In this document: positions 1 through 17,111 of the stretch, piece by piece
Position numbering within the stretch: position 1 is the stretch's first letter
Layout: every line of letters begins with the position of its first letter
Source: Myxococcota bacterium
GTDB lineage: Bacteria; Myxococcota_A; UBA796; CAJQPC01
DNA: 64,000 nucleotides
Assembly: GCA_023150845.1 (NCBI GenBank)
Contig: JAKLKD010000003.1
Coordinates: forward strand, 6,847-70,846
Reading direction: 5' to 3'
Translations under genes and position numbers: made by a program
Notes under the pieces: generated by a model
What the model was told of the DNA's origin: nothing
The model's input: the letters and a program-made list of their open reading frames with translations, nothing else
The model's database searches: none

Positions 1-1
1 G

Positions 2-973
2 CCCCGGCTGGCGAAGGCGCTCAAGGACGCCGGGATGAAGGCCGTGGGCGTCTCCGTGGACGGCCCGGAGGAGATCCACGACGTGCTCCGGGACAGCGTC
101 GGGAGCTGGCGCTCGGCGATGCGCGCCTTGGAGGTGTGTAAAGAGGTCGGCCTCGTCACCAGCTCCAACACCCAGGTGAACAACCTCAACGCGCACATGC
201 TCCGCGAGATCGGGGCGATGATCAAGAAGACGGGCGTGCGCGTCTGGCGCGTGCAGCTCACCGTGCCCATGGGTCGGGCGGCGGATCGCCCCGAGTGGAT
301 CCTCGATCCCCCGAAGATCCTCGACGTGATCGACACGCTGGCGGCGATGCAGCTCGAAGAGGTCGCCATGGTGCGGGCCAAGGGCCTGCCGCCGGAGCGC
401 GCCTTCAACATCATGTCGTCGAACAACGTCGGCTACTACGGCCCCCACGAGCAGGTGCTGCGCAGCCGCCCCGGCGGCGACGAGGCCTACTGGCGTGGCT
501 GCCAGGCCGGGGTGTACACCATCGGCATCGAGTCCGACGGCACGGTGAAGGGCTGCCCCAGCCTGCCCACCGCGCCGTACACCGGCGGCAAGGTGCGCGA
601 TCTGGGCCTGGAGCAGATCTGGCGGAACGCTGAGGAGCTCAACTTTGTGCGGGAGCGCACGACGGAGGAGCTCTGGGGCTTCTGTAAGACCTGCTACTAC
701 GCCGACATCTGCCGGGCGGGCTGCTCGTTCACCACGCACTGCACCTTAGGCAAACGCGGCAACAACCCCTTCTGTTACCACCGCGCGGCGACGCTCAAGC
801 GCCAGGGCCGCCGTGAGCGCCTGGTGCTCAAGGAGGCCGCCGCGGGCATCCCCTACGACTTCGGGCGCTTCGAGCTCATCGAGGAGGACTGGGACGCGGC
901 GGGCGCTCAGGAGTCCTCGCCGTCGCAGTTGGAGTCGACGCCGTCGCCGTCCACCTCGGGGGCGCCGGGGTAG
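2..973 (+). CDS. radical SAM / SPASM-domain maturase-like protein (5' end cut off by the window edge)
   Basis: The frame-2 ORF stays open to the window edge, with no stop upstream of the Met at 35. The C-terminal half carries a SPASM-type Cys pattern (GCQAGVYTIGIESDGTVKGC ... CKTCYYADICRAGC ... C) as in PqqE/MftC/anSME-type enzymes. The CxxxCxxC core would lie upstream of the window. The last 67 nt overlap array gene P1 convergently. Confidence 0.8.
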   Translation, partial: PRLAKALKDAGMKAVGVSVDGPEEIHDVLRDSVGSWRSAMRALEVCKEVGLVTSSNTQVNNLNAHMLREIGAMIKKTGVRVWRVQLTVPMGRAADRPEWILDPPKILDVIDTLAAMQLEEVAMVRAKGLPPERAFNIMSSNNVGYYGPHEQVLRSRPGGDEAYWRGCQAGVYTIGIESDGTVKGCPSLPTAPYTGGKVRDLGLEQIWRNAEELNFVRERTTEELWGFCKTCYYADICRAGCSFTTHCTLGKRGNNPFCYHRAATLKRQGRRERLVLKEAAAGIPYDFGRFELIEEDWDAAGAQESSPSQLESTPSPSTSGAPG

Positions 974-1233
974 ACGCTGGCGTTGTCATCGTCGCAGTCG
1001 CCGTCGTCGGCGCTGTAGCCGTCGCCGTCTTCGTCGACGTAGCCGCTCTCGGCGACGCCGTAGTCGGTCTCGGGCGCGATCTTGTCGCAGCCCACGAGGC
1101 TGAGGCCCATGAGCGCGGCGGCGGCGGTGGAGCGCAGGCCACACTCGCGGAGCTTGGCGCCGCAGTGAACGCAGACGCAGGACGAGCCCAAGACGTGCTC
1201 GCCACAAGAGGCGCAGGGGATCAGCGCGGGCAT
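907..1233 (-). CDS. array member P1: zinc-ribbon / lipobox / single MopE-like Asp-Cys motif mini-protein (108 aa)
   Basis: MPALIPCASCGEHVLGSSCVCVHCGAKLRECG (6 Cys), then AAAALMGLSLVGC (lipobox-like), then DEDGDGY..GDCDDDNASVYPGA..DGVDSNCDGEDS-stop. GAGG lies upstream of the ATG. Strong paralogy to 11 neighbours. Confidence 0.8.
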   Translation of the reverse strand: MPALIPCASCGEHVLGSSCVCVHCGAKLRECGLRSTAAAALMGLSLVGCDKIAPETDYGVAESGYVDEDGDGYSADDGDCDDDNASVYPGAPEVDGDGVDSNCDGEDS

Positions 1234-1248
1234 GGTTCGCCTCGGGGG

Positions 1249-1689
1249 CTAGGTGTTGTCGTCGCCGTCGCAGTTGGAGTCCACGCCGTCGCCGGGGGTC
1301 TCCGTCGCGCCGGGGAAGACCGCGCCGTCGGTGTCGTCGCAGTCGCCGCCCTCGGCGCTCACGCCGTCGCCGTCTTGGTCCCCGGTGTCGGCGACGCCGT
1401 AGTCCGGGGTGACGGGGCTCGTGTCCTCCTCCTCGACCTCGCTGTCCGCGGCGGAGTCGGCGGAGTCGGCGGTGTCGGCGGTGTCCGCCGTGTCCGGCAC
1501 GCCGTACTTGGGCTGGGGCGCGATGATGTCACAGCCGGGCATGCTCAGACCCATGAGCGCGGCGGCGGCGGTGGCGGCCAAGGTGTGGCGCAGGCCGCAG
1601 TCGCGGAGCTTGGCGCCGCAGTGGACGCAGGCGCAAGAGGCCTCAAGGACGTGCTGGCCGCAGGACGAGCAGGCGATGAGCTGGGGCAT
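1249..1689 (-). CDS. array member P2 (146 aa), with an inserted acidic DTA/DSA repeat linker
   Basis: MPQLIACSSCGQHVLEASCACVHCGAKLRDCG, AAAALMGLSMPGC, DQDGDGV..GDCDDTDGAVFPGA..DGVDSNCDGDDNT-stop. The stop lies 15 nt from the P1 start. Confidence 0.8.
   Translation of the reverse strand: MPQLIACSSCGQHVLEASCACVHCGAKLRDCGLRHTLAATAAAALMGLSMPGCDIIAPQPKYGVPDTADTADTADSADSAADSEVEEEDTSPVTPDYGVADTGDQDGDGVSAEGGDCDDTDGAVFPGATETPGDGVDSNCDGDDNT
1451..1495 (-). repeat. five imperfect 9-nt tandem units inside P2
   Basis: Plus strand reads gcggagtcg gcggagtcg gcggtgtcg gcggtgtcc gccgtgtcc. On the minus strand this encodes the DTADTADTADSADSA stretch. Confidence 0.8.
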
Positions 1690-1698
1690 GGCGTTGAC

Positions 1699-2052
1699 TC
1701 AGGTGTTGGGGTTGCCGTCGCAGTTGGAGTCGATGCCGTCGTCCGCGGCCTCGGCGGCGCCGGGGTACACGCTCGAGTTGTTGTCGTCACAGTCGCCGTC
1801 GGCCACGGTGTAGCCGTCGCCGTCGAGATCCTCAGAGTACCCCGAGTCCGCGAAGCCGTAGTCGGTCTGGATCGGCGCGTCGGTGTCGCTGCCCTCCTTG
1901 TCGCCGCAGGCCGCCAAGGCGAGGCCCATGAGCGCGGCGGCGGCGGTGGAGCGCAGGCCGCAGTCCTTGAGCTTGGCGCCGCAGTGGGCGCAGGCGCAGG
2001 CCGAGGAGAGGACGTGCTGGCCGCAAGCGGCGCAGGCGATGAGCGGGGGCAT
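1699..2052 (-). CDS. array member P3 (117 aa)
   Basis: MPPLIACAACGQHVLSSACACAHCGAKLKDCG, AAAALMGLALAAC, DLDGDGY..GDCDDNNSSVYPGA..DGIDSNCDGNPNT-stop. The stop lies 9 nt from the P2 start. Confidence 0.8.
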   Translation of the reverse strand: MPPLIACAACGQHVLSSACACAHCGAKLKDCGLRSTAAAALMGLALAACGDKEGSDTDAPIQTDYGFADSGYSEDLDGDGYTVADGDCDDNNSSVYPGAAEAADDGIDSNCDGNPNT

Positions 2053-2069
2053 GAGGCGCTCCGAGGAGG

Positions 2070-2393
2070 TCAGGTGTTGTCGTCGCCGTCGCAGTTGGAG
2101 TCGATGCCGTCGTCTACGGTGTCGATGGCGCCGGGGTTGATGGTAGCGTCGTTGTCGTCGCAGTCGTCGGTCTGGGCGTAGTAGCCGTCGCCGTCCTCGT
2201 CATCGTAGCTCACGACGACGCCATACTCAGGCTCAACCTGCAGCACGCAGCCGCCCAGGCTGAGGCCCATGAGCGCGGCCGCGGCGGTGGCGCGCAGCGT
2301 GCAGTCCTTGAGCTTGGCGCCGCAGTGGGCGCAGGCGCAGGCTGAGGCGAGGACGTGCTGGCCGCAGGCGCCGCAGGCGATGAGCGGGGGCAT
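2070..2393 (-). CDS. array member P4 (107 aa from the internal Met)
   Basis: The tracked ORF is 2070..2432. I start it at MPPLIACGACGQHV (cat at 2391-2393) because that aligns with the P1-P3 N-termini. Ends in DEDGDGYYAQTDDCDDNDATINPGAIDTVDDGIDSNCDGDDNT-stop. Confidence 0.75.
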   Translation of the reverse strand: MPPLIACGACGQHVLASACACAHCGAKLKDCTLRATAAAALMGLSLGGCVLQVEPEYGVVVSYDDEDGDGYYAQTDDCDDNDATINPGAIDTVDDGIDSNCDGDDNT

Positions 2394-2409
2394 GACGCGC
2401 TCCGGGGGC

Positions 2410-2718
2410 TCAGGTGTTGTCGTCGCCGTCACAGTTGGAGTCGATGCCGTCGTCTACGGTGTCGATGGCGCCGGGGTTGACGCTGGCGTCGGAGTCGTCG
2501 CAGTCGTCGGCCTGCGCGGCGTAGCCGTCGCCGTCCTCGTCGGTGTAGGCGATGCCGTAGAGGTCTTGGGCGCAGGCGCTCGCGGAGAGCGCGAGGCCCA
2601 TAAACAAGGCCGTCGGGCCGAGCCCACCCCGGCGCACGGCGCCGCCGCAGAAGGCGCAGCGGGCGTTCGGGTCGACGTTGAGCTGCCCGCAGGCGGCGCA
2701 GGAGTAAAGCGTAGGCAT
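2410..2718 (-). CDS. array member P5 (102 aa), 4-Cys ribbon subtype
   Basis: This is the C-terminal part of the 232-aa tracked ORF 2410..3108. The start is set at MPTLYSCAACGQLNVDPNARCAFCGG (cat at 2716-2718). The upstream 130 aa are Ala/Pro/Thr/Arg-rich out-of-family sequence overlapping P6. Ends in DEDGDGYAAQADDCDDSDASVNPGAIDTVDDGIDSNCDGDDNT-stop. Confidence 0.75.
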   Translation of the reverse strand: MPTLYSCAACGQLNVDPNARCAFCGGAVRRGGLGPTALFMGLALSASACAQDLYGIAYTDEDGDGYAAQADDCDDSDASVNPGAIDTVDDGIDSNCDGDDNT

Positions 2719-2734
2719 CGGCGCTCCAGAGCGA

Positions 2735-3070
2735 TCAGGTGTCGTCGCCGCCGTCGCAGTTGGAGTCGATGGTGTCGCCCGCCGTCTCGGTGGCGCCGGG
2801 GAAAACCGTGGCGTCGTCGTCGTTGCAGTCGCCGTCGCGCACGGCGACGCCGTCACCGTCGTTGTCGACGTAGCCCGTGTCCGGCACGCCGTAGAGCGCG
2901 ACGGGGCCGGAGTCGCTGCCGTCTTTGTCGCCGCAGGCCACGAGCGCGAGGCCCATGAGCGCGGCGGCGGCGGTGAAGCGTGTGGCGTTCGGCGCGGCGC
3001 CGCAGCTCGGGCAGGTGTCGGCGTCGGAGAGCACGTGGGCGCCGCAGCGGGCGCAAGAGAGCAGGGGCAT
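2735..3070 (-). CDS. array member P6 (111 aa), 4-Cys ribbon subtype
   Basis: MPLLSCARCGAHVLSDADTCPSCGAAP, AAAALMGLALVAC, DNDGDGV..GDCNDDDATVFPGATETAGDTIDSNCDGGDDT-stop. Confidence 0.8.
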   Translation of the reverse strand: MPLLSCARCGAHVLSDADTCPSCGAAPNATRFTAAAALMGLALVACGDKDGSDSGPVALYGVPDTGYVDNDGDGVAVRDGDCNDDDATVFPGATETAGDTIDSNCDGGDDT

Positions 3071-3171
3071 GGAGACCTCAGGGCTGGGACTAGGGCGACA
3101 AGGCGCACTATACCGCGATCTGAGGCCGTGCCGCGCCTGAGATCGTGATCCGCCGCAGGCCCAGGCCGGGC

Positions 3172-3507
3172 TCAGGTGTTGTCGTCGCCGTCACAGTTGG
3201 AGTCGAGGCCGTCGTCGGTGGTCTCTAAGGCCCCGGGGTTGACCGCGGCGTTGTTGTCGTCGCAGTCGCCGTCACGCACGGCGTAGCCGTCGCCGTCATC
3301 ATCGACGTAGCCCGTGTCGACCACGCCGTAGAGGTCCGAGACGACGGAGTCGCCGCCGTCTTTGTCGCCGCAGGCCACGAGCGCGAGGCCCATGAGCGCC
3401 GCGGCCGCGGTGAGGCGCGTGGGGCTCGGCGCGGCGCCGCAGCTCGGGCAGTGGGCGTCACCGTCGAAGACGTGGGCGCCGCAGCGGGCGCAGGGGCGGA
3501 GGGACAT
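3172..3507 (-). CDS. array member P7 (111 aa from the internal Met), 4-Cys ribbon subtype
   Basis: The tracked ORF is 3172..3615. The start is set at MSLRPCARCGAHVFDGDAHCPSCGAAP (cat at 3505-3507), by alignment with P6 and P8. Ends in DDDGDGY..GDCDDNNAAVNPGALETTDDGLDSNCDGDDNT-stop. Confidence 0.75.
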   Translation of the reverse strand: MSLRPCARCGAHVFDGDAHCPSCGAAPSPTRLTAAAALMGLALVACGDKDGGDSVVSDLYGVVDTGYVDDDGDGYAVRDGDCDDNNAAVNPGALETTDDGLDSNCDGDDNT

Positions 3508-3616
3508 GGCGGGGGACCTCTTGGAGTGGGGGGCGCTCCTTTTTACCATGAGCCGCGGCCAGGTCGTGGCGGGGGCTATCCCCGTGGAAGAATAGTCCCG
3601 ATGTCGGGCGCTCATC

Positions 3617-4012
3617 GTGCTTGTCGTCGGGCGGATGGGCTCTTACCCCGACCTGTGCTCGTCCGCCGGAGTCCATCTGTATCGGGTGGTCCTCTCCGAA
3701 CAGAGCGCGCTCGCTGGACCACATGTCGCCGGTCTCGCGACACGGTTCGGTCCCTCGCTCCCACGCGGCGTGCTCATCGAGGTGAAGCTCAGCGACGACC
3801 CGGGCCACATCAAGCAGGGCTTCGCCGAGGCCATCGTCTACCGCGACGAGCACCGCGCGCTGTTCACCGACGAGCGGGACTGGCCGAAGACGATCCTGGT
3901 CACCTCACGCCCGCTCCTGAGCGAGCCGCGGCGTGGGGATGACGTCATCGCCGTGGACTGGGCGCGCTGGACGCCGGAGGCCGTGCTCGAGGGCATCGTC
4001 TCCGGCTTGTGA
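3617..4012 (+). CDS. hypothetical protein (about 125-131 aa) on the opposite strand, splitting the array
   Basis: Balanced amino-acid composition and clear GC3 bias in its own frame, unlike the Arg/Pro-rich shadow ORFs nearby. No family recognised. The start is uncertain (GTG at 3617 or ATG at 3635). Confidence 0.55.
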   Translation: MLVVGRMGSYPDLCSSAGVHLYRVVLSEQSALAGPHVAGLATRFGPSLPRGVLIEVKLSDDPGHIKQGFAEAIVYRDEHRALFTDERDWPKTILVTSRPLLSEPRRGDDVIAVDWARWTPEAVLEGIVSGL

Positions 4013-4018
4013 GGGGGC

Positions 4019-4357
4019 TCAGGTGTTGTCTTCGCCGTCGCAGTTGGAGTCGATCCCGTCGTCGGGCGTCTCCGTGGCGCCGGGGTTCACGTTCGGATCG
4101 CCGTCATCGCAGTCGTCGCTCTCGGCGTTGTAGCCGTCGCCGTCCTCGTCGATGAACGCCGAGGAGTCGGGCACCCCGTAGGCGGGCTGGATGTCTTTGT
4201 CGCCGCAGGCCACGAGGCCGAGGCCCATCGCCAGGGCCGCCGCCGTCGCGTGCAGCGCGCCGCCGCCGCAGTCGCGGAGCTTGGCGCCGCAGCTCGGGCA
4301 GGCGCAGGAGGTGTCGAGCACATGAACGCCGCAGCGGGCGCAGGGGTGAAGGGACAT
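4019..4357 (-). CDS. array member P8 (112 aa)
   Basis: MSLHPCARCGVHVLDTSCACPSCGAKLRDCG, AAALAMGLGLVAC, DEDGDGYNAESDDCDDGDPNVNPGATETPDDGIDSNCDGEDNT-stop. Confidence 0.8.
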   Translation of the reverse strand: MSLHPCARCGVHVLDTSCACPSCGAKLRDCGGGALHATAAALAMGLGLVACGDKDIQPAYGVPDSSAFIDEDGDGYNAESDDCDDGDPNVNPGATETPDDGIDSNCDGEDNT

Positions 4358-4371
4358 CGGAGGCTCCGGGG

Positions 4372-4788
4372 TCAGCGGTTGTTCTTGCCGTCGCAGTCGG
4401 AGTCTACCCCATCAAACCACCGCTCACGCGCGCCGGGGAAGACGTCGGGCGCGCTGTCGTCGCAGTCGCCTTGGGAGACGAGCACCCCGTCGCCGTCGCC
4501 GTCGAGCTCGGGCGGAGGCTCGACGACGAGCTCCTCGGGCGGAGTGACCTCAGGTGGCGGCATGAGCACGTCCCCGGGCCCGACGCGGTCCATCGGCGGC
4601 ACCCCGTAGGCGGCCTGGAGCTGGTTTGAGCGGTCGGGCTCGTCCGCGCCGACCAAGGTGAGCCCCATGAGCACCGCCGCAGCGCCTCGGGTGAGTTTGC
4701 CCGTCGTGGAGAGGGCGCCACAGCTTGGGCAGGCGCCGGGGCTGGGGGTCAAGAGCGCGCCGCAGCGACCGCAGGGGTGGAGGTGCAT
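4372..4788 (-). CDS. array member P9 (138 aa), variant without the lipobox Cys, Pro-rich linker
   Basis: MHLHPCGRCGALLTPSPGACPSCGA, AAAVLMGLTLVGAD (no Cys), a Pro/Glu linker, then LDGDGDGV..GDCDDSAPDVFPGARERWFDGVDSDCDGKNNR-stop. Confidence 0.8.
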   Translation of the reverse strand: MHLHPCGRCGALLTPSPGACPSCGALSTTGKLTRGAAAVLMGLTLVGADEPDRSNQLQAAYGVPPMDRVGPGDVLMPPPEVTPPEELVVEPPPELDGDGDGVLVSQGDCDDSAPDVFPGARERWFDGVDSDCDGKNNR

Positions 4789-4803
4789 CGTCGGGGCCTC
4801 GGG

Positions 4804-5247
4804 TCAGCGGTTGTTCTTGCCGTCGCAGTCGGAGTCAACACCGTCAAACCAGCGCTCCTTGGCGCCGGGGAGGACGTTGGGGTCGGCGTCGTCACAGTCT
4901 CCGGCCTGGGCGGGAACACCGTCAGCGTCGGCGTCTTGAGCGACGACCACGGGCGGCGGGAGAGGCGTGGCGACGACGCCGTACAGCGGCTCGTCGATCG
5001 GCGGCGGGGGCGGCGGCGGCGGCTCGGGTGGCGGCGGCTCGGGCTCGGGCGGCTCAGGATCGAACACCACACCATACTCTGGCTCAGGGGCCTGACCGGG
5101 ATCATCGGCGCCGAGCAGCGCGAGGCCCATGACAACGGCGGCGGCGGTGCGGGTGAAGGCGCCGCTGAGCTGCCGCCCGCAGTGGGGGCAGACCAAGGCG
5201 GCGCGCTGGACGTGCTGACCGCAGGCAGGGCAGGGGTGGAGCAGCAT
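4804..5247 (-). CDS. array member P10 (147 aa from the internal Met), variant without the lipobox Cys, Pro-rich linker
   Basis: The tracked ORF is 4804..5394. The start is set at MLLHPCPACGQHVQRAALVCPHCG (cat at 5245-5247). Tail is DADADGV..GDCDDADPNVLPGAKERWFDGVDSDCDGKNNR-stop. Confidence 0.75.
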   Translation of the reverse strand: MLLHPCPACGQHVQRAALVCPHCGRQLSGAFTRTAAAVVMGLALLGADDPGQAPEPEYGVVFDPEPPEPEPPPPEPPPPPPPPIDEPLYGVVATPLPPPVVVAQDADADGVPAQAGDCDDADPNVLPGAKERWFDGVDSDCDGKNNR

Positions 5248-5263
5248 CGGCGGGGCCTCGGGC

Positions 5264-5764
5264 TTAGCGGTCTTGTTTGCTGTCGTCGGCGGGCTCGGCG
5301 TCGTCTGGGGCGGAGGCCTCTGGGGTGGGGCCGTCGGTGACGGCCGGCCCCGGCGCCGGGACGGGCGTGACGACGATGCCGTACAGCGGCTCAACGCGGA
5401 TCGGCTCGGGCTCGGGCGGCGGCTCGGGCGGCGGCGTGGGCTCAGGCGGTGGCTCGGGCTCCGGCGGTGGCTCGGGCGGCGGCGGTGGCTCGGGCGGCGG
5501 CGGCTCAGGAGGGGGCTTGGGCCGCTTGGGCCGCTTCTTCTCGGGCACAGGCGGTGGAGGCTCCGGCGCGGGCTGCTCCACCTTGCCGTAGAGGGGCTCG
5601 GGCCGGGGTTCCTCGCCGTGGTCCGCGCCCATCAAGGTGAGGCCCATGACCACGGCCGCCGCGGTGCGGGTGAGCTTGCCGCCGGGGCTCGCCCCGCAGT
5701 GGGGGCAGGCGAGGGCGGTGAGCTGGACGTGCTGCCCGCAGGCGCCGCAGGCGCGGAGGGTCAT
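5264..5764 (-). CDS. array member P11 (166 aa), degenerate: ribbon and hydrophobic segment kept, C-terminal Asp-Cys motif lost
   Basis: MTLRACGACGQHVQLTALACPHCGA, AAAVVMGLTLMGAD, then a very long PEPPPP linker. It ends in ..AEPADDSKQDR with no DCDD/CDG motif. Confidence 0.7.
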   Translation of the reverse strand: MTLRACGACGQHVQLTALACPHCGASPGGKLTRTAAAVVMGLTLMGADHGEEPRPEPLYGKVEQPAPEPPPPVPEKKRPKRPKPPPEPPPPEPPPPPEPPPEPEPPPEPTPPPEPPPEPEPIRVEPLYGIVVTPVPAPGPAVTDGPTPEASAPDDAEPADDSKQDR

Positions 5765-5778
5765 GGGCGCTCCAAGGA

Positions 5779-6123
5779 TCAGGTGTCGTCGCCGCCGTCG
5801 CAGTTGGAGTCGATGCTGTCCCCGGCGGTCTCGGTGGCGCCCGGGAAGACGTTCGCGTCGTCGTCGTTGCAGTCGCCATCCCCGACGGTCACGCCGTCAC
5901 CATCGGCGTCCGCGAGGTACGAGGTGTCGGCCACGCCGTACTCGGGGGCGAAGCCGCTGTCCGAGGGCTCCTTGTCGCCGCAGCCGACCAGCGCGAGGCC
6001 CATGAGCGCGGCGGTCGCGGTGTGGCGCAGCCCGCAGTCGCGGAGCTTGGTGCCGCAGTGGGGGCAAGAGCAGCTGCTCTCAAACACGTGGGTGCCGCAG
6101 TGGGCGCAGCTCGTCATCGGCAT
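5779..6123 (-). CDS. array member P12 (114 aa from the internal Met); promoter-proximal gene of the upstream sub-array
   Basis: The tracked ORF is 5779..6150. The start is set at MPMTSCAHCGTHVFESSCSCPHCGTKLRDCG (cat at 6121-6123), preceded by GAGGAG. Ends in DADGDGV..GDCNDDDANVFPGATETAGDSIDSNCDGGDDT-stop. Confidence 0.75.
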   Translation of the reverse strand: MPMTSCAHCGTHVFESSCSCPHCGTKLRDCGLRHTATAALMGLALVGCGDKEPSDSGFAPEYGVADTSYLADADGDGVTVGDGDCNDDDANVFPGATETAGDSIDSNCDGGDDT

Positions 6124-6163
6124 GGTCGTCTCCTCAGGCTGGATGGTCACGGTGGACGATGGG

Positions 6164-6169
6164 ATTGTA
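6164..6169 (-). promoter_or_regulatory. candidate -10 box (TACAAT on the minus strand) for the P12-P8 sub-array
   Basis: Minus strand reads ttttGGGACTACAATccc about 41 nt upstream of the P12 ATG. The -35 is poor (ccgacc). A related GGGACTATTCT lies upstream of P7 (plus 3589-3599). Confidence 0.35.
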
Positions 6170-6389
6170 GTCCCAAAATCTTGGGGTCGGCGTGGCGACG
6201 GTCCGAGGTTGTGCTACGCTGTTCCCGATGTCGCCCATGAACGCCAACACCCAGACTACGACTACCCTGCCTCTCGGCGGGCTCGTGGTCGTGTCGGCGC
6301 GTTAGCGACGTCCTCACCACCCAGCGCCTCGCCGACGAACGGCGAGGCCCTCGCGGTGTCGTCGCTCGTCGGTCCAACAGGAGACCGAC

Positions 6390-7595
6390 ATGAACAAGCT
6401 CCCTGAAGATCATCGTGTCATCGCTCGCCGCCTCGACCTGCTGCACTTCCAAGAGGAGGCGCCAGGCATGGTGTTCTGGCATCCCCCTGGCTTCACGCTC
6501 CTCCGGGTGCTGGAGGAGGCCTCCCGCGCCGCCTCCGCCCGGGAGGGCTACGTCGAGGTCCGTACACCTCAGGTGCTTCGCGCGCCGATCTGGGCGCAGA
6601 GCGGCCACTGGGAGCACTTCCAGGACGCCATGTTCCGGGTGGGGGACGCCGACGTCCCCGCCGCGCTCAAGCCCGTGAGCTGCCCAGCGCACATCAGCAT
6701 CGTGAACCGACGATCCTTGTCGTGGCGGGAGCTGCCGCTCCGGATCGCGGAGCTCGGCCTCGTGCACCGTGACGAGCAGCAGGGCGCGCTCTGCGGGCTC
6801 CTCCGCCTGCGCCAGTTCACACAAGACGACGGCCACATCTTCTGTGAGCCACACCAGCTCGTCGAGGAGATACGCCGGTTCTGCGCGTCGATCGGGCCGT
6901 TCTACGCGGCCTTCGGCTTTGACCGGGTCGAGGTCGGGCTCTCGACGAGGCCCCCGGCGCGGCTCGGCGACGACGCGGGCTGGGACTTCGCCGAGGCGGC
7001 CTTGGCCGAGGGCGCGGCGCTGGCGGGGCTCCACCCCATGATTCAGCCCGGTGAAGGCGCGTTTTATGGGCCGAAGCTGGAGTTTGTGCTCATCGACGAC
7101 GCCGGACGGCGCTGGCAGTGCGGGACGATGCAGGTGGACCTCGTGATGCCTGAGCGGTTTGACGTGGAGTACGTCGGCCGCGACGGCGCGCGGCGTCGGC
7201 CGGTGATGCTGCACCGGGCCCGGTATGGCAGCCTGGAGCGCTTCATGGGCCTGCTCTTGGAGCATCACCAGGGTCGCCTGCCAGGCTGGCTGGCGCCGGT
7301 CCAGTGCTGGGTGCTGCCGATCAGCGCGGAGCATGAGCCTTGGGCGGAGCACGTCCGGGCGACGCTCGCCGCCGCTGGGCGACGGGTGGAGCTGCGGCCC
7401 TCGGACCAGTCCTTGGGGCGTCGTGTCGCCGAGGCCCACCAGCAGGGCATCCCCGCGGTGCTCGTCGTCGGCGGGCGCGAGGTCGCCGCGCGCTCGGTCG
7501 CCTGGCGTCAGGCCGCCGGGGGCTCGTCGCCGACGCCGCTGGAGGAGGCCGTGGCGCGCCTGAACGCGCTCTGTCGTTGCCCCCTGGAGCCGTGA
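6390..7595 (+). CDS. thrS: threonyl-tRNA synthetase paralog: catalytic core + anticodon-binding domain only (no TGS/editing region)
   Basis: Collinear from residue 1 with the E. coli ThrRS catalytic domain as I recall it. Matches: [25 protein letters not shown] vs [33 protein letters not shown] vs [18 protein letters not shown] vs [22 protein letters not shown] vs [18 protein letters not shown]. The Cys/His/His zinc-ligand positions are kept. 401 aa equals the length of E. coli ThrRS minus its N-terminal ~240 aa. AGGAGA lies 6 nt upstream of the ATG. Confidence 0.88.
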   Translation: [401 protein letters not shown]

Positions 7596-7637
7596 GCGGC
7601 CAGGGTGCTATGCTGGGGCTCCCCGGAGCCCCAGCCT

Positions 7638-8312
7638 ATGCGCGCCAGCAGCCCCCGTCGTAAAGCCCTCACCGCCCTCGGCGTCTGGTTCGCCGTCAAC
7701 ATCGTGCTCGCCGCGCTCTTCGTGGGCCTGAACCTCGCCTATCGGTCCGGCGTCGACGCGGTCGAGTTTAAGGGTGGGGTCGCCAGCTTCGACCGAGAGT
7801 TTGACGGGGCGCTCTTCGGCATCGACGACGAGCGGGCCTACCGGGTGAGCGCCTCCGGCGACATCGCCGTGGTGAAGATCAAGCCGGGCACGCCGCCGTT
7901 TCGGCCGGTCTGCGGCACGACGAGCCTCGACGGCAGCCTCATCAACCTCGCGATGTACCAGCGGGGCGACTGGGTCTACAGCGGCTACCCCGAGTTCGAC
8001 GGCGTCGACGCCTACAACGTGCGAACGGGGGAGACGCTCTCGGTGAGCGCCCCGACCCCGGCGCCGGGCAAGATGACCGATCCGGCGACCATCGCCGAGT
8101 ACCGCAGCCGAGGGCTCACCTTCGCGGCGGCCAACAAGCTCACGGTGGAGCGCGTCGTGCGTGGCCACCGGCAGCTCGCCTCCATCGAGGAGAGCTGCGT
8201 GGTGTTTAACGCCGCGTTCTTTCTGCTCTTCGGCGCCTCGGCCGTCGCCGGGCTGTGGCTGACGGCGCGGGCGCTTATGGCGAAGAGTGAGCCTACTGCT
8301 CCATCAGCTTGA
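7638..8312 (+). CDS. hypothetical membrane protein (TM helices at the N- and C-terminus)
   Basis: ALTALGVWFAVNIVLAALFVGLNLAY and FNAAFFLLFGASAVAGLWLTA hydrophobic helices. No family recognised. The start is placed at the ATG at 7638 rather than the tracked 7605. Confidence 0.55.
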   Translation: MRASSPRRKALTALGVWFAVNIVLAALFVGLNLAYRSGVDAVEFKGGVASFDREFDGALFGIDDERAYRVSASGDIAVVKIKPGTPPFRPVCGTTSLDGSLINLAMYQRGDWVYSGYPEFDGVDAYNVRTGETLSVSAPTPAPGKMTDPATIAEYRSRGLTFAAANKLTVERVVRGHRQLASIEESCVVFNAAFFLLFGASAVAGLWLTARALMAKSEPTAPSA

Positions 8313-13651: not shown

Positions 13652-14569
13652 TCAGGGGGGAGTCATTGGAGGGTGTTCGTGGACGGCCCAGGGACCGCCG
13701 GGCGGCCAGCGGCTCACCTGGGCGCCGGTCCAGGTCGGGGAGAAGAGCGCACGGAGCGCGCTCACAAGCTGGTCAAGCGGCGGCGCGGGCTCGATGCCAG
13801 CCTTTCGCACGTAGGCGCCCCACTGGGAGGCCTTCGTGGGGTCGTTGGGCATGGCGTCGCTGAGCCCGATGGGCGTCTCGGTTGGGCGGGGGATCCCTCG
13901 GCGGGTGAGGGTGTTCTCGACGGCGCGCAGCAGGTTGCCATCAAGCTCAAACCGCTGACCGAGCAGCCAGAGGTCGTAGTAGTCCTTCATTCGGCTGTTC
14001 TCAAGGCCAAGAGCGAGGATGGTGCTGTACTTCTCGGCCATGCTCGTCTCTTTGGGGTAGACCAAGAGCTCAGGCGCGGGGAGGTCGAGCAGGCTGGGGT
14101 AACGTTCACGGCGCGGGGCGGGGGTGATCGAGTCGCCGAAGCCAACGTCGATGTGCACGCGCACCTGCTCCTTGCCGAAGCGCGCGCTGAGGTCGGCGGA
14201 GAGGCCAGGGTAGGCGCGGTTGCGGGTGGCGACGCCCACTTGTAGGCTCGTGAGGTCAAAGCTCACGCCGTCGTCGTCCACCTCACCGCCGAGCACCTCA
14301 CCCAAGATCCGGGCAAACTCCTCGGGAGAGGGATCGCCGCTCCCCAAGAGGTCGATGTCTTGGGTGGGGCGCTTGACGTCGCGCAGCCAGATCCCGAACA
14401 TCATCGCGCCTTTGAGCACGAACTTGTCGCCGTAAGGGGAGCGGGCGAGGCGGTAGAGCAGGCGCTCGTTGACGTATTGATCGACGAGCAGGTGGTAAGG
14501 CAGCGCTCCGGGGAGCTTACTCCGCATCTTCAGCCGGTCTCGCACACTCGCGGCGATGTTTCGGGTCAC
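13652..14569 (-). CDS. AbiEii/AbiGii-family nucleotidyltransferase toxin (type IV TA)
   Basis: N-terminal pattern IAASVRDRLK..., FVLKGAMMF..RPTQDIDLLG and ..DVGFGD are typical of DUF1814/AbiEii. There is a 4-nt overlap with the upstream AbiEi-like gene. Confidence 0.8.
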   Translation of the reverse strand: MTRNIAASVRDRLKMRSKLPGALPYHLLVDQYVNERLLYRLARSPYGDKFVLKGAMMFGIWLRDVKRPTQDIDLLGSGDPSPEEFARILGEVLGGEVDDDGVSFDLTSLQVGVATRNRAYPGLSADLSARFGKEQVRVHIDVGFGDSITPAPRRERYPSLLDLPAPELLVYPKETSMAEKYSTILALGLENSRMKDYYDLWLLGQRFELDGNLLRAVENTLTRRGIPRPTETPIGLSDAMPNDPTKASQWGAYVRKAGIEPAPPLDQLVSALRALFSPTWTGAQVSRWPPGGPWAVHEHPPMTPP

Positions 14570-15159
14570 AGCAGCGCCTCCACATAGGGTCGCATCTTGT
14601 TGTAGGCCCGCCGCCGCCGGGCGATGGCCATGAGCGGCTGCACCTCGTTAGGGAATCGGCCTAGGTAGTCCTTGAGGGCGTCAAGGGCGGGCTCAAGGCC
14701 CACCTGCCGGGTGAAGTGGAAGGCCTCGACGACCGCGCGGGCGGGGGAGAACACCTTCACCATCACGCCATCGATCTCGTGGTGCTCGACGTCGAGGCCA
14801 AGCTCAGCCTCGTCGAGCCAAGACACCCGCAGCTTCAGGCTCGTGAGCCGCGGCGCCCAGCTCCCCCGGGGGAGCGCGATCCACTCCTGCCAGGGGCGCT
14901 CTAGTCCAAGCCGGTGAAAGTGCAGGGCCGAGAGCAGGGTGACGACGGCCTTGGGCGCCTTCGCCGAGACGACGGCGAGGCTGTTGTGGATGGAGATCTC
15001 GGCGTCAGCGCCTTGGTAGAGGCCACGCTCCACCCGGACGAGGGTGCCGCCGCGGGTGAGGCGGCTCGCCGTCGCTTGGGAGCCGCCGCGGGCGTTGAGC
15101 AGCCCGGCGCGAATGAGCCCGTCTTGGGGGCTGGGCCGCTGGCCCTGCGCACGTTTCAT
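14566..15159 (-). CDS. AbiEi-family antitoxin / transcriptional regulator
   Basis: LTRGGTLVRVERGLYQ winged-helix signature and an AbiEi_4-like C-terminal domain; coupled to the AbiEii gene. The start is set at MKRAQGQ (cat at 15157-15159); the tracked ORF extends to 15213. Confidence 0.7.
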   Translation of the reverse strand: MKRAQGQRPSPQDGLIRAGLLNARGGSQATASRLTRGGTLVRVERGLYQGADAEISIHNSLAVVSAKAPKAVVTLLSALHFHRLGLERPWQEWIALPRGSWAPRLTSLKLRVSWLDEAELGLDVEHHEIDGVMVKVFSPARAVVEAFHFTRQVGLEPALDALKDYLGRFPNEVQPLMAIARRRRAYNKMRPYVEALL

Positions 15160-15189
15160 GGGTGAGATCCTCACATCATTGGAAGAAAG

Positions 15190-15399
15190 GTAGAGGTTTT
15201 CTACCATGTTCATGTTGTGCGAAGCAACCGCGTCCCCCTCGTTCCGTTGCGCAGTCGCCTAACTCGGCGTTCATGTGGCCTGCCAGAAGGCGAGTGAAAA
15301 CCTATCAAAACTAATGTCAGAGCAAAGGTTTTCACTCCATCCAACGCTGATATGATTGAGAAGCGCTCATAATCCATAAAAAATTAGAGGTTTTCACTC
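15190..15399. promoter_or_regulatory. AT-rich region with repeated AGGTTTTCACTC motif (candidate AbiEi operators/promoter)
   Basis: gagtgaaaacct (15292-15303) and aggttttcactc (15326-15337) form a 12-bp inverted repeat with a 22-nt spacer. A third exact copy, aggttttcactc, lies at 15388-15399. A related gtagaggttttctac lies at 15190-15204. Confidence 0.45.
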
Positions 15400-15449
15400 A
15401 ACCCTATGCACCTTCCTCTACGGCTAGGAGCGCGCTGGCGCGTAGTGGT

Positions 15450-17111
15450 TTAGCCCCTCCGCGCCGCCACCAACGCCATGAGCCCGAAGACCCCGGCCAT
15501 GACGAAGAGCACGAGGCTCAGGGCGGGCAGGCCGAAGAGGCGCAGGTCGGTGTAGTCCAGGCTCAGGGCCGCGCAGAGGGCGGCGGTCACGGCGAAGGCG
15601 CCGAGGAGCTGGGCGCGCAGGCGCTGGTCGAGGCGGCGGGAGGTCTGGGGATCCTCCCGGTTCACGACGTTCACCCGCAGGCGCTGGTCGTCGATGTCGT
15701 CGAGGAGCTGGCTGAGGCTCATCGGCAGGCGTCGGGCGAGGGTGCTCAGGGTGACCAGGTTGTAGAACAGGTCCTCCTGGGTGCGCTGGGACGAGAAGCG
15801 CTCGGAGACGAGGCGCTGCACATAGGGCTTCGCCGCGCCCAAGGGGTCTACCTCGGGGATCAGCGACTTCGCCAAACCTTCGGTCGTGAGCAGGGCCTTA
15901 AAGAAGGTCGTGTAGGTCGGCGGCGCCCGGACGCGGTGCTTGAGCGCGCCTTCAGTGATGTCGAGCAAGAACCGCCCGATCTGCATCTCCTGGACGCTTA
16001 CGCCCTCCCAGTTTCGCTCGACGACGAGGGTGGTGTCCCGCTCGAAGGCGTCGTAGTCCACCCGCTCGCTCTTGATCGCGATGTCGAAGAAGATGCGGGA
16101 GATGGTGCGGTAGTCCCCACGCTCTAAGGCGAAGAGCAGAGAGACGATGCTGTCCTTCATGTCCCGGGTGAGGCGGCCCACCATGCCGAAGTCGAGCAGG
16201 CCGATGACGTGGCCCGGCAGGATGAGCACGTTGCCGGGGTGCAGGTCGCCGTGGAAGAAGCCGTGGTCAAACAGCATCGTGTAGGCGGCCTCGAGGTAGC
16301 GGCGGCCCACCTCGTCCATGTCGTAGCCGTGCTCCCGGGCCTGGCGGATCTTCACGCCGTCGAGGTGCTCGATGCACAGCACCCGGGAGGTGGTCAAGGC
16401 GTCGAAGACCGTCGGGATCTTCACCCGGGGGTTCCCGGCGAAGTTCGCGGCGAAGCGGCGCATGTTTGTCGCCTCGGCCATGAAGTCGAGCTCGGCGGTG
16501 ATGCTGCGCTCAAACTCGCTGAGCACCCCTTGGGGGTCGAGGAGCTCGGCCTCGGGGAACTCGGCGCAGAGGCGGTTCACGAGCAGGTGCAGGATGCTCA
16601 GGTCCGCCCGGATCATCGCCGCGATGCCAGGCCGCTGCACCTTAAACACGACTTCAGCGCCAGACTGCAGCGCCGCCCGGTGCACCTGGGCGATGGAGGC
16701 CGTGGCCAGGGGCGCCTCGTCGAAGCGGCTAAGGCCCACACGCCAGCCGGAGCCGAGCTCCGCCGCGATGGTGCGCTCAATCTCGGCGAAGGGCAGGGGG
16801 CCGACGTCGTCTTGTAGGGACTGGAACGCCGCGAGGTACGCCGGGGGCACCACGTCGGGCCGGGTCGAGAGCACCTGGCCGAGCTTGATGAAGGTGGGGC
16901 CAAGGTCTTTGAGGGCGGCGACGGCGCGCTCGGGGGTGGACTCGGAGGAGTCCCGGCTCGCCCGGTCGAGGCCCGGCAGCTCCAGGGTGTGCACCAGCCA
17001 GCCGAAGCCGTGGCGCACGAGGATCGCGGCGACCTCACGCAGGCGGTTGATGTCGCGCACGGTGTGCGTGAGGCCGCCGACGGTGCGCACGACGGGACGG
17101 ACGATTCTCAC
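15450..17111 (-). CDS. ABC1/UbiB-family atypical kinase
   Basis: LGPTFIKLGQVLSTRPDVVP, ASIAQVHRA and HGDLHPGNVL motifs; C-terminal TM helices. Confidence 0.85.
   Translation of the reverse strand: MRIVRPVVRTVGGLTHTVRDINRLREVAAILVRHGFGWLVHTLELPGLDRASRDSSESTPERAVAALKDLGPTFIKLGQVLSTRPDVVPPAYLAAFQSLQDDVGPLPFAEIERTIAAELGSGWRVGLSRFDEAPLATASIAQVHRAALQSGAEVVFKVQRPGIAAMIRADLSILHLLVNRLCAEFPEAELLDPQGVLSEFERSITAELDFMAEATNMRRFAANFAGNPRVKIPTVFDALTTSRVLCIEHLDGVKIRQAREHGYDMDEVGRRYLEAAYTMLFDHGFFHGDLHPGNVLILPGHVIGLLDFGMVGRLTRDMKDSIVSLLFALERGDYRTISRIFFDIAIKSERVDYDAFERDTTLVVERNWEGVSVQEMQIGRFLLDITEGALKHRVRAPPTYTTFFKALLTTEGLAKSLIPEVDPLGAAKPYVQRLVSERFSSQRTQEDLFYNLVTLSTLARRLPMSLSQLLDDIDDQRLRVNVVNREDPQTSRRLDQRLRAQLLGAFAVTAALCAALSLDYTDLRLFGLPALSLVLFVMAGVFGLMALVAARRG

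Follow-up and report, generated by a model that had tools for sequence, protein, structure and literature searches.

The window analysed here is a stretch of 64,000 nucleotides from a Myxococcota bacterium (contig JAKLKD010000003.1, positions 6,847 to 70,846 of the forward strand). Its left edge cuts into a gene for a radical S-adenosylmethionine (rSAM) enzyme with a SPASM domain, towards which an array of 12 mini-genes, P1 to P12, runs on the opposite strand. On balance, we think it probable that the partial gene encodes a splicease-type enzyme and that the 12 adjoining mini-proteins are its substrates, modified at X-Tyr-Gly. Spliceases excise the equivalent of tyramine at such sites, leaving an α-keto-β-amino acid, and are known to act on proteins as well as on peptides (PMC11414181, PMC10533398, PMC11626197, PMC9811515, PMC10849128). 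The locus would best be read as a two-component spliceotide-type system that lacks a Y protein and acts ahead of Sec export. To our knowledge, no route to ribosomal α-keto-β-amino acids other than that of the spliceases is known.

The edge enzyme and its splicease-like relatives

Reading frame 2 of the + strand contains no stop between base 2 and the TAG at 971–973. The 323-residue fragment that it encodes matches Pfam SPASM (E 6.5e-7, residues 167–232) and NCBIfam TIGR04085 SPASM (E 1.1e-11), and part of it also matches the Radical_SAM core, of which it covers the C-terminal half. These matches lie far beyond chance and bear out the SPASM pattern that an earlier reading, made from the DNA letters and their translations (hereafter, the sequence-only reading), had seen in the edge gene. 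Close relatives have a complete enzyme gene of 430–432 codons, and full-length homologues in general span 400–430 residues, with the CxxxCxxC motif aligning at residues 29–36. An exact-sequence look-up with P1, meant to reach the DNA upstream of the window, gave no match, and the close relatives L001, L004, L005 and L085 served in its place. As a full-length proxy for the window enzyme we used P0001, which is 96% identical to it; C29xxxC33xxC36 is present in P0001 and across the clade, and the invariant cysteine columns of the SPASM domain are C274, C292, C335, C338, C344, C348, C354 and C365 in P0001 numbering.

The best NCBIfam match of the fragment is TIGR04103 (nif11-class peptide rSAM maturase 3; 323 bits, E 1.5e-96), followed by TIGR03913 (275 bits). 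The plp locus of Pleurocapsa PCC 7319 (L084) was recovered through its published precursor PlpA3, and the identity of PlpX (L084:10754-12010) was checked by its PlpA3 neighbour and by its TIGR04103 score of 824 bits. Because this score exceeds the cut-off of the model (725 bits), TIGR04103 is the family of the characterised splicease. P0001 and PlpX share 48% identity across 393 residues (E 2e-127), a similarity that takes in the SPASM domain as well as the PYDFGRFE stretch towards the C-terminus. On TIGR04103, P0001 scores 435 bits, alongside P0025 (380 bits) and a Sorangium orthologue (422 bits). P0299, a true TIGR03913 member with 771 bits on that model, is 45% identical to P0001. Because the scores of P0001 fall below both curated cut-offs, the window enzyme belongs to an unmodelled Myxococcota clade of the splicease-like superfamily, beside the PlpX family and TIGR03913. 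Family classification, which the sequence-only reading had proposed as a check, thus gives TIGR04103 as the best match, at a score under its cut-off.

More distant rSAM enzymes score far lower. The nearest sequences in the PDB (SkfB 6efn, BlsE, PqqE 6c8v and the anaerobic sulfatase maturase (anSME) 4k37) match at E 1e-15 or weaker; we know of no solved splicease structure. On the StsB and SkfB models the fragment scores 34 bits and on the anSME model 50 bits, all far under the cut-offs, and P0001 matches 16 NCBIfam families at E <= 1e-20, none of which is a cyclophane-type maturase model. The anSME reading was rejected on its 50-bit score and on a motif search in which the sulfatase C/S-x-P/A-x-R motif was absent from all 12 mini-proteins.

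A zinc ribbon very like that of the mini-proteins is fused to the enzyme in at least 14 of 150 superfamily cluster representatives, TIGR03913 members included. The fusion is mostly C-terminal and is N-terminal in P0300; an example reads RLVLCPSCEQYIAAPETRCPHCG. None of the 120 listed members of the window enzyme's own clade carries such a fused ribbon. That one clade carries the ribbon on its enzyme and another on its partner proteins hints that ribbon and enzyme work together, an argument of the Rosetta-stone kind that is limited by how short and common zinc ribbons are. Sister-clade enzymes with the fused ribbon, which occupies TIGR03913 profile positions 426–458, include P0299, P0302, P0303, P0305 and P0311.

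Pairing of enzyme and mini-genes across Myxococcota

A scan of species-representative genomes returned 471 relatives of the enzyme, and the locus counts given here refer to the best 80 of these 471. The 80 loci hold Myxococcota-type sequences (Sorangium, Nannocystis, Paraliomyxa and many metagenome-assembled genomes (MAGs)), and their labels are almost all Myxococcota. We defined a partner as an open reading frame (ORF) with a zinc ribbon and then a hydrophobic segment, lying within 2.5 kb of the enzyme gene. Such a partner is present at 58 of the 80 loci, and only a handful of zinc-ribbon/hydrophobic ORFs were found farther into the flanks. The nearest partner is convergent and downstream at 36 loci, co-directional and upstream at 16, divergent and upstream at 5, and co-directional and downstream at 1; the gap in the upstream co-directional arrangement is 23–36 nt in Sorangium and several others. 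In the first three contexts (96%, 76% and 66% identity), the mini-genes lie directly downstream and convergent, with upstream neighbours that vary, and the other neighbours of the pair likewise differ between loci. Because the pairing is kept across Myxococcota while other neighbours change, a functional link between the enzyme and the mini-protein array is supported.

The sequence-only reading had suggested that the enzyme is a maturase of the mini-proteins. The link itself is upheld by the conserved pairing; the likely target and chemistry differ from those it proposed. Its own main objection, the convergent orientation, falls with the 16 loci at which the enzyme gene is closely preceded by a mini-gene on the same strand. 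Co-occurrence, which it had named as a check, shows as adjacency at 58 of the 80 enzyme loci and gives a mixed result in the reverse direction: of four partner homologues taken from long contigs, two adjoin an rSAM/SPASM gene. It had also seen no neighbouring peptidase or exporter, and we agree: no such gene adjoins the enzyme/mini-gene pair here or in relatives with full flanks.

Locus L085, on a 509-kb contig, shows the arrangement in a close relative of the window: its P1 orthologue is 98% identical, its enzyme has 430 residues, the 67-nt overlap of the window recurs, and all 13 of its mini-protein orthologues retain YG sites. A lipid-A-acyltransferase-like gene lies upstream of the enzyme gene in divergent orientation, and no peptidase, exporter or PlpY-like gene is present at this locus. 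At L077 the enzyme gene has no adjoining partner; a family member with an AYG site (P0263) lies on another contig of the same MAG, and this genome holds an unlinked enzyme–partner pair.

Two further observations concern these loci. The 76%-identical locus (L002) carries, within 7 kb of its array, a second rSAM gene with an N-terminal Zn_ribbon_HMPTM domain and a gene for prolipoprotein diacylglyceryl transferase (Lgt) (14163–15590 and 16271–17008); the Lgt gene is worth noting given the lipobox-like signals described below. Such an arrangement was not seen in the other contexts inspected. MAG records L008, L009, L015, L018, L044 and L075 contain a Myxococcota-type locus under the labels Enterobacterales, Enterobacteriaceae or Bifidobacterium breve, which probably reflect binning or labelling errors.

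Features shared by the partner proteins

The partners have a common architecture: a zinc ribbon (CxxC..CPHCG), a basic residue, a hydrophobic run of ~13 residues, a low-complexity linker and YG sites. By pattern match, a lipobox-like xx[GAS]C is present in 74 of 85. YG occurs in 80 of 84 unique partners and at 56 of the 58 partnered loci, with 1–5 copies per protein and the site consensus [E/Q]-P-[E/D/A/L]-Y-G-V-P-x-T. The dipeptide is strongly enriched (157 observed against 35 expected from composition), Gly follows 65% of all Tyr residues, and Y58 and G59 are invariant among 29 aligned MopE-type members. The validated PlpA3 core AAMYGVVFP(WD) and the splice tag PIRPGYGLPI resemble PEYGVVF, LYGVP and AYGVP in the window.

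The Cys/Asp-rich MopE tail, which the sequence-only reading had raised as the target of the enzyme, is much less widely shared. Counted by hidden Markov model, it occurs among the partners of just 19 of the 58 partnered loci and is absent from those of the other 39; partners from Nannocystis, Sorangium and Paraliomyxa, whose enzymes are 59–63% identical, do not have it, and in the window it is missing from P11, whereas all 12 mini-proteins carry X-Tyr-Gly.

Variants of the architecture were also seen. Sorangium partners (L046, L048, L053, L058, L072 and L081) lie co-directionally 23 nt upstream of the enzyme gene and carry repeats of the form GGDI[N/A/S]V..AYGG[G/S][P/S]SV in place of EPEYGVP; their GDI element recalls the 'GDL motif' after which the TIGR03913 partner peptides are named. 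At L075, the two partners (7134–7499 and 7534–7956, + strand) show the whole architecture and end in the MopE tail, but read D-Y-S where X-Y-G stands in the others.

Organization of the window locus

The 12 mini-genes occupy 907–6123 on the − strand (Table 1), with a GC content at third codon positions of 0.83–0.97 and most gaps 9–17 nt long. They hold 15 YG sites in total, 5–16 residues past the signal segment, with D, E, L, A or K at X. The PF11617 MopE Cys/Asp-rich motif occurs in 11 of the 12: P1, P2, P3 and P9 score 36–40 bits (gathering threshold 27), P11 gives no match, and the other copies align to the motif. By pattern match, nine of the 12 have R/K, a hydrophobic run of ~13 residues and then LVGC, LVAC, LAAC, LGGC, MPGC or ASAC; the zinc ribbon of ~30 residues that precedes the n-region is atypical for a lipoprotein signal of the Sec/signal peptidase II (SPII) kind. 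In an AlphaFold2 model of P1, the predicted local distance difference test score is ~80–85 for the zinc ribbon, ~50 for the YG linker and ~88–91 for the MopE module, and the YG site is thus predicted to lie in a low-confidence linker between the ribbon/signal part and a MopE module modelled with confidence. The mini-proteins are not covered by any NCBIfam model and gave just weak zinc-ribbon matches, and public databases name the partner proteins only as 'hypothetical', 'MopE-related' or 'putative metal-binding motif-containing'.

Table 1. Positions of the edge gene, its parts and the mini-genes in the window.
Feature	Positions	Strand	Description
Partial rSAM/SPASM gene	2..973	+	3' three-quarters, 323 codons and stop; PlpX-like (splicease-like)
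SPASM auxiliary Fe-S cluster domain	500..775	+	Fragment residues 167-258; PF13186, TIGR04085
C-terminal extension of enzyme, ~22 residues	905..970	+	Non-conserved; antisense 'shadow' frame of P1
Convergent overlap of enzyme gene and P1	907..973	both	67 nt
P1, 108 aa	907..1233	-	Zn ribbon (CxxC..CxxC), lipoprotein-like signal LVGC, D-Y58-G (1057-1065), MopE motif
P2, 146 aa	1249..1689	-	K-Y-G (1501-1509), D-Y-G (1396-1404); MopE motif
P3, 117 aa	1699..2052	-	D-Y-G (1855-1863); MopE motif
P4, 107 aa	2070..2393	-	E-Y-G-V-V (2220-2228); MopE motif
P5, 102 aa	2410..2718	-	L-Y-G (2554-2562); MopE motif
P6, 111 aa	2735..3070	-	L-Y-G-V-P (2888-2896); MopE motif
P7, 111 aa	3172..3507	-	L-Y-G (3325-3333); MopE motif
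P8, 112 aa	4019..4357	-	A-Y-G-V-P (4175-4183); MopE motif
P9, 138 aa	4372..4788	-	No lipobox Cys (LVGA|D), A-Y-G-V-P (4603-4611), variant MopE tail (..DSDCDGKNNR)
P10, 147 aa	4804..5247	-	No lipobox Cys, Pro-rich linker, E-Y-G-V-V-F (5071-5079), L-Y-G-V-V (4978-4986), variant MopE tail
P11, 166 aa	5264..5764	-	Zn ribbon, signal, Pro-rich linker, two L-Y-G (5585-5593, 5378-5386), no MopE motif
P12, 114 aa	5779..6123	-	E-Y-G (5935-5943); MopE motif

The enzyme gene and P1 converge and overlap: the P1 stop codon TGA reads from 909 to 907 on the − strand, and both stops and the 67-nt overlap lie exactly where the sequence-only reading had placed them. The enzyme tail (..QESSPSQLESTPSPSTSGAPG) is the antisense of P1's MopE-motif tail. 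In the alignment, homologues that are 58–76% identical terminate at the conserved PYDFGRFE.xEE.W or at most ~20 variable residues past it, and the tail extension and the identical overlap occur only in near-identical relatives (at least 96%; L001, L004, L005 and L085). Within the overlap, codons of the enzyme gene and of P1 have their third positions at the same nucleotides; this is the 'shadow' frame, which remains open in high-GC DNA. Because homologues end earlier and the third positions coincide, the last ~22 residues of the enzyme are best read as non-functional read-through, in agreement with the earlier suggestion that they have no function. Shadow ORFs also lie on the + strand opposite the mini-genes (1253–1402, 2739–2873, 3933–4133, 5273–6406 and others), where they repeat the peptide SSPSQLES.PSP..S.APG; these are artefacts of an open antisense frame, an effect that also lengthens the enzyme ORF.

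Within the array, P9–P11 (4372–5764, − strand) form a paralogue sub-group that has GA|D in place of the lipobox Cys, PEPPP linkers and the variant tail KERWFDGVDSDCDGKNNR, and that is kept in L085; within it, P11 has lost the MopE motif entirely. The gap between P7 and P8 (3508–4018, 511 nt) holds a + strand ORF of 131 residues (3617–4012) without an NCBIfam match; at the matching point, the L085 array (13 mini-genes against 12) has a 28-nt spacer. The gap represents either an insertion or a copy that has decayed, and the array may consist of two transcription units separated by it. A promoter scan of positions 1–6500 turned up neither σ70-like sites nor terminators beyond chance, a result that is uninformative on operon structure in a high-GC genome. 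Beyond the array, a threonyl-tRNA synthetase gene (6390–7595, + strand, 401 residues) lacks the N-terminal ~170 residues and matches TIGR00418 at positions 170–562 (411 bits; cut-off 384), that is, in the catalytic and anticodon-binding parts only. The same gene follows the L085 array (3680–4885), and it may be a second or resistance-type copy of the synthetase.

Proposed mechanism and alternative explanations

Homology to PlpX, conserved synteny, and the conservation and enrichment of the motif are the observations on which our proposal builds, and from the 48% identity to PlpX together with the motif we infer tyramine excision as the chemistry. In the cytoplasm, the enzyme would act wherever a conserved X-Tyr-Gly occurs in a mini-protein's flexible linker. 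A tyramine equivalent (C8H9NO, −135.06 Da) would be taken out and the backbone rejoined, which would turn residue X into an α-keto-β-amino acid (a ketoamide). The N-terminal zinc ribbon and the lipoprotein-type signal peptide would together serve as the 'leader', with no PlpY-like helper. The modified protein would then be exported through the general Sec route, and the nine lipobox proteins would be lipidated and cut by SPII, a cleavage that would remove their ribbon-plus-signal 'leader'. We propose that no dedicated peptidase or exporter is encoded because Sec export and SPII would do the job. The MopE Cys/Asp motif would not be the site of modification; it would be a module, specific to this lineage, that the mature product carries outside the cytoplasm.

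The unusual substrate architecture could make this spliceotide-type system a real variant. In its most extended form, which we offer tentatively and consider less likely than the splicease assignment itself, the system would yield exported proteins in place of released peptides, with the ribbon and the lipoprotein signal acting as leader and activator and Sec, Lgt and LspA replacing a dedicated protease and exporter. The products would be lipid-anchored α-ketoamide mini-proteins displayed beside a Ca/metal-binding MopE module.

Several points weigh against a splicease acting on these mini-proteins. The chemistry is argued from 48% identity and a motif, and P0001 stays under the cut-offs of both TIGR04103 (435 against 725 bits) and TIGR03913 (390 against 591.75 bits). 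No partner adjoins the enzyme gene at 22 of the 80 loci, and, in the reverse direction, an rSAM gene is lacking within 5 kb of two of the four partner homologues. The enzyme and P1 genes are convergent and overlapping in the window, so that co-regulation is not evident. As for the substrates, the signal and lipobox calls come from pattern matching, and the AlphaFold2 monomer of P1 has only a four-residue, low-confidence helix (38–41, in the hydrophobic segment) and no clear leader helix of the RhaA type. Both L075 partners read D-Y-S and not D-Y-G, which makes them either natural variant sites or inactive substrates. Finally, D/E-Y-G is the commonest site here, while the DYG site of RcsA was left unspliced by its enzyme (PMC11626197).

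These points bear on how the alternatives are to be judged. The link could be real and Tyr-Gly the target with a different chemistry at work, such as a cyclophane-type Tyr cross-link at Y-G-V, epimerisation or another backbone rearrangement. It is known that rSAM/SPASM maturases switch chemistry over modest sequence distances, and the enzyme, in an unmodelled clade 45–50% identical to members of TIGR04103 and TIGR03913, lies below the equivalog cut-offs of both; D or E at X also departs from the M or L of validated sites, as the unmodified RcsA DYG illustrates. We nevertheless find such a different chemistry unlikely, given the full-length identity to PlpX, a YG[V/L][V/P] context that matches validated splice sites and the lack of any cyclophane-type model among the families matched by P0001. 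In the same direction, Scott et al. 2022, as far as their work is relayed in PMC10849128, reportedly confirmed splicing for 27 enzyme–substrate pairs from diverse clades chosen by a 'YG-rich neighbour' criterion. A more radical alternative is that the mini-proteins are not substrates at all: they could be zinc-ribbon membrane anchors or regulators, with the true substrate encoded elsewhere, or the synteny could be inherited without meaning. The incomplete pairing in both directions speaks for this, as do the sister-clade enzymes that bear the ribbon themselves, which could make it an accessory module and not a leader, and the conservation of the enzyme across the clade (58–76% identity), unusually high for a peptide maturase. 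The synteny, however, survives three gene orientations and changing flanks, and the near-universal partner feature besides the ribbon and signal is X-Tyr-Gly, the recognition site of the closest characterised relative; we rate this alternative as quite improbable.

The sequence-only reading had raised thioether or other cross-links in the Cys/Asp-rich C-terminus, in the manner of sactipeptides or ranthipeptides, or else sulfatase-maturase chemistry. Cys–Asp thioethers made by rSAM/SPASM enzymes are known, the window enzyme has a SPASM domain, and 11 of the 12 mini-proteins end in the strongly conserved Cys/Asp motif. Outside the window this motif fails as a common denominator, with partners bearing it at about a third as many loci (19) as those bearing X-Tyr-Gly (56), and many large proteins with multiple PF11617 repeats, for example at L008, L009 and L033, have no such partner. 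The nearest characterised relative is PlpX, and the fragment's 34 bits on sactipeptide maturase models and 50 bits on the anSME model compare with 323 bits on the splicease model. We therefore rejected thioether formation as the main explanation, the Cys/Asp tail not being conserved among partners, and regard cross-linking of the tail as very unlikely indeed. A splicease acting at X-Tyr-Gly remains the reading that we prefer.

Implications

A 2022 review states that mature spliceotides had yet to be seen in native hosts and that their role in nature was unknown (PMC9811515). The clade described here could make the native role of splicing testable, since it is large (the scan returned 471 relatives of the enzyme), is strongly conserved and includes the cultivable genera Sorangium, Nannocystis and Paraliomyxa; its substrates, predicted to be exported and probably lipid-anchored, would open that role to genetics and envelope proteomics. 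If our reading is right, this modification extends from secreted peptides to cell-surface proteins, and hundreds of 'hypothetical' or 'MopE-related' mini-proteins could be re-annotated as splicease substrates. In the extended form outlined above, the displayed mini-proteins could inhibit proteases at the cell surface or act as reactive anchors in predatory Myxococcota. The ribbon–enzyme fusion of the sister clades would likewise be a natural counterpart of the engineered splicease–leader fusion that has been reported (PMC11414181). As relayed in PMC10849128, Scott et al. 2022 mined reference proteomes for YG-rich neighbours across 189 genera, and their splicease catalogue may already list this Myxococcota clade.

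Comparison with known systems

The MopE domain and the wider rSAM/SPASM superfamily offer the more distant comparisons. Typical PF11617 proteins in the flanks are large and multi-repeat and have no link to an rSAM gene, whereas the mini-proteins have a single motif, a ribbon-extended signal and X-Tyr-Gly. Sacti- and ranthipeptide maturases (SkfB and StsB) and anSME share the rSAM core and SPASM domain with the window enzyme, to which their sequence likeness is distant. TIGR03913 ('GDL motif peptide-associated radical SAM/SPASM maturase', rad_SAM_trio) is closer: it is the second-best model (390 bits for P0001), and the GGDI-NV..AYGGGPSV repeats of the Sorangium partners recall its GD[L/I] motif. 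In TIGR03913 and neighbouring clades the zinc ribbon is C-terminal on the enzyme, whereas here it is on the partner proteins.

The closest likeness is to PlpX/PlpY/PlpA of Pleurocapsa sp. PCC 7319 (type I), with which the window locus shares an enzyme that is 48% identical and has the same best NCBIfam model, several precursor paralogues adjoining one enzyme gene, and X-Tyr-Gly in a YG[V/L][V/P] context. Unlike the plp precursors, the mini-proteins have no Nif11/NHLP leader (no Nif11 match was found) and carry instead a zinc ribbon, a lipoprotein-type signal and a MopE end; unlike the plp locus, which encodes a C39 peptidase/ABC exporter, this one encodes none. It further differs from known spliceotide pathways in that D, E, L or A occupies most X positions, the mini-genes number 12–13 and the enzyme lies under the TIGR04103 cut-off. 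No small ORF for a PlpY-like protein was found between or beside the genes, and a 57-residue ORF 1.4 kb away in L085 is unlike PlpY by eye. In this respect the locus resembles the two-component type II systems RhaX/RhaA, RasX/RasA and RcsX/RcsA of Rheinheimera, which have no Y protein. Splicease types outside Cyanobacteria are two-component systems without one (PMC11414181), and the layout of the Myxococcota locus, one enzyme beside an array of X-Tyr-Gly mini-proteins, matches these Y-less types.

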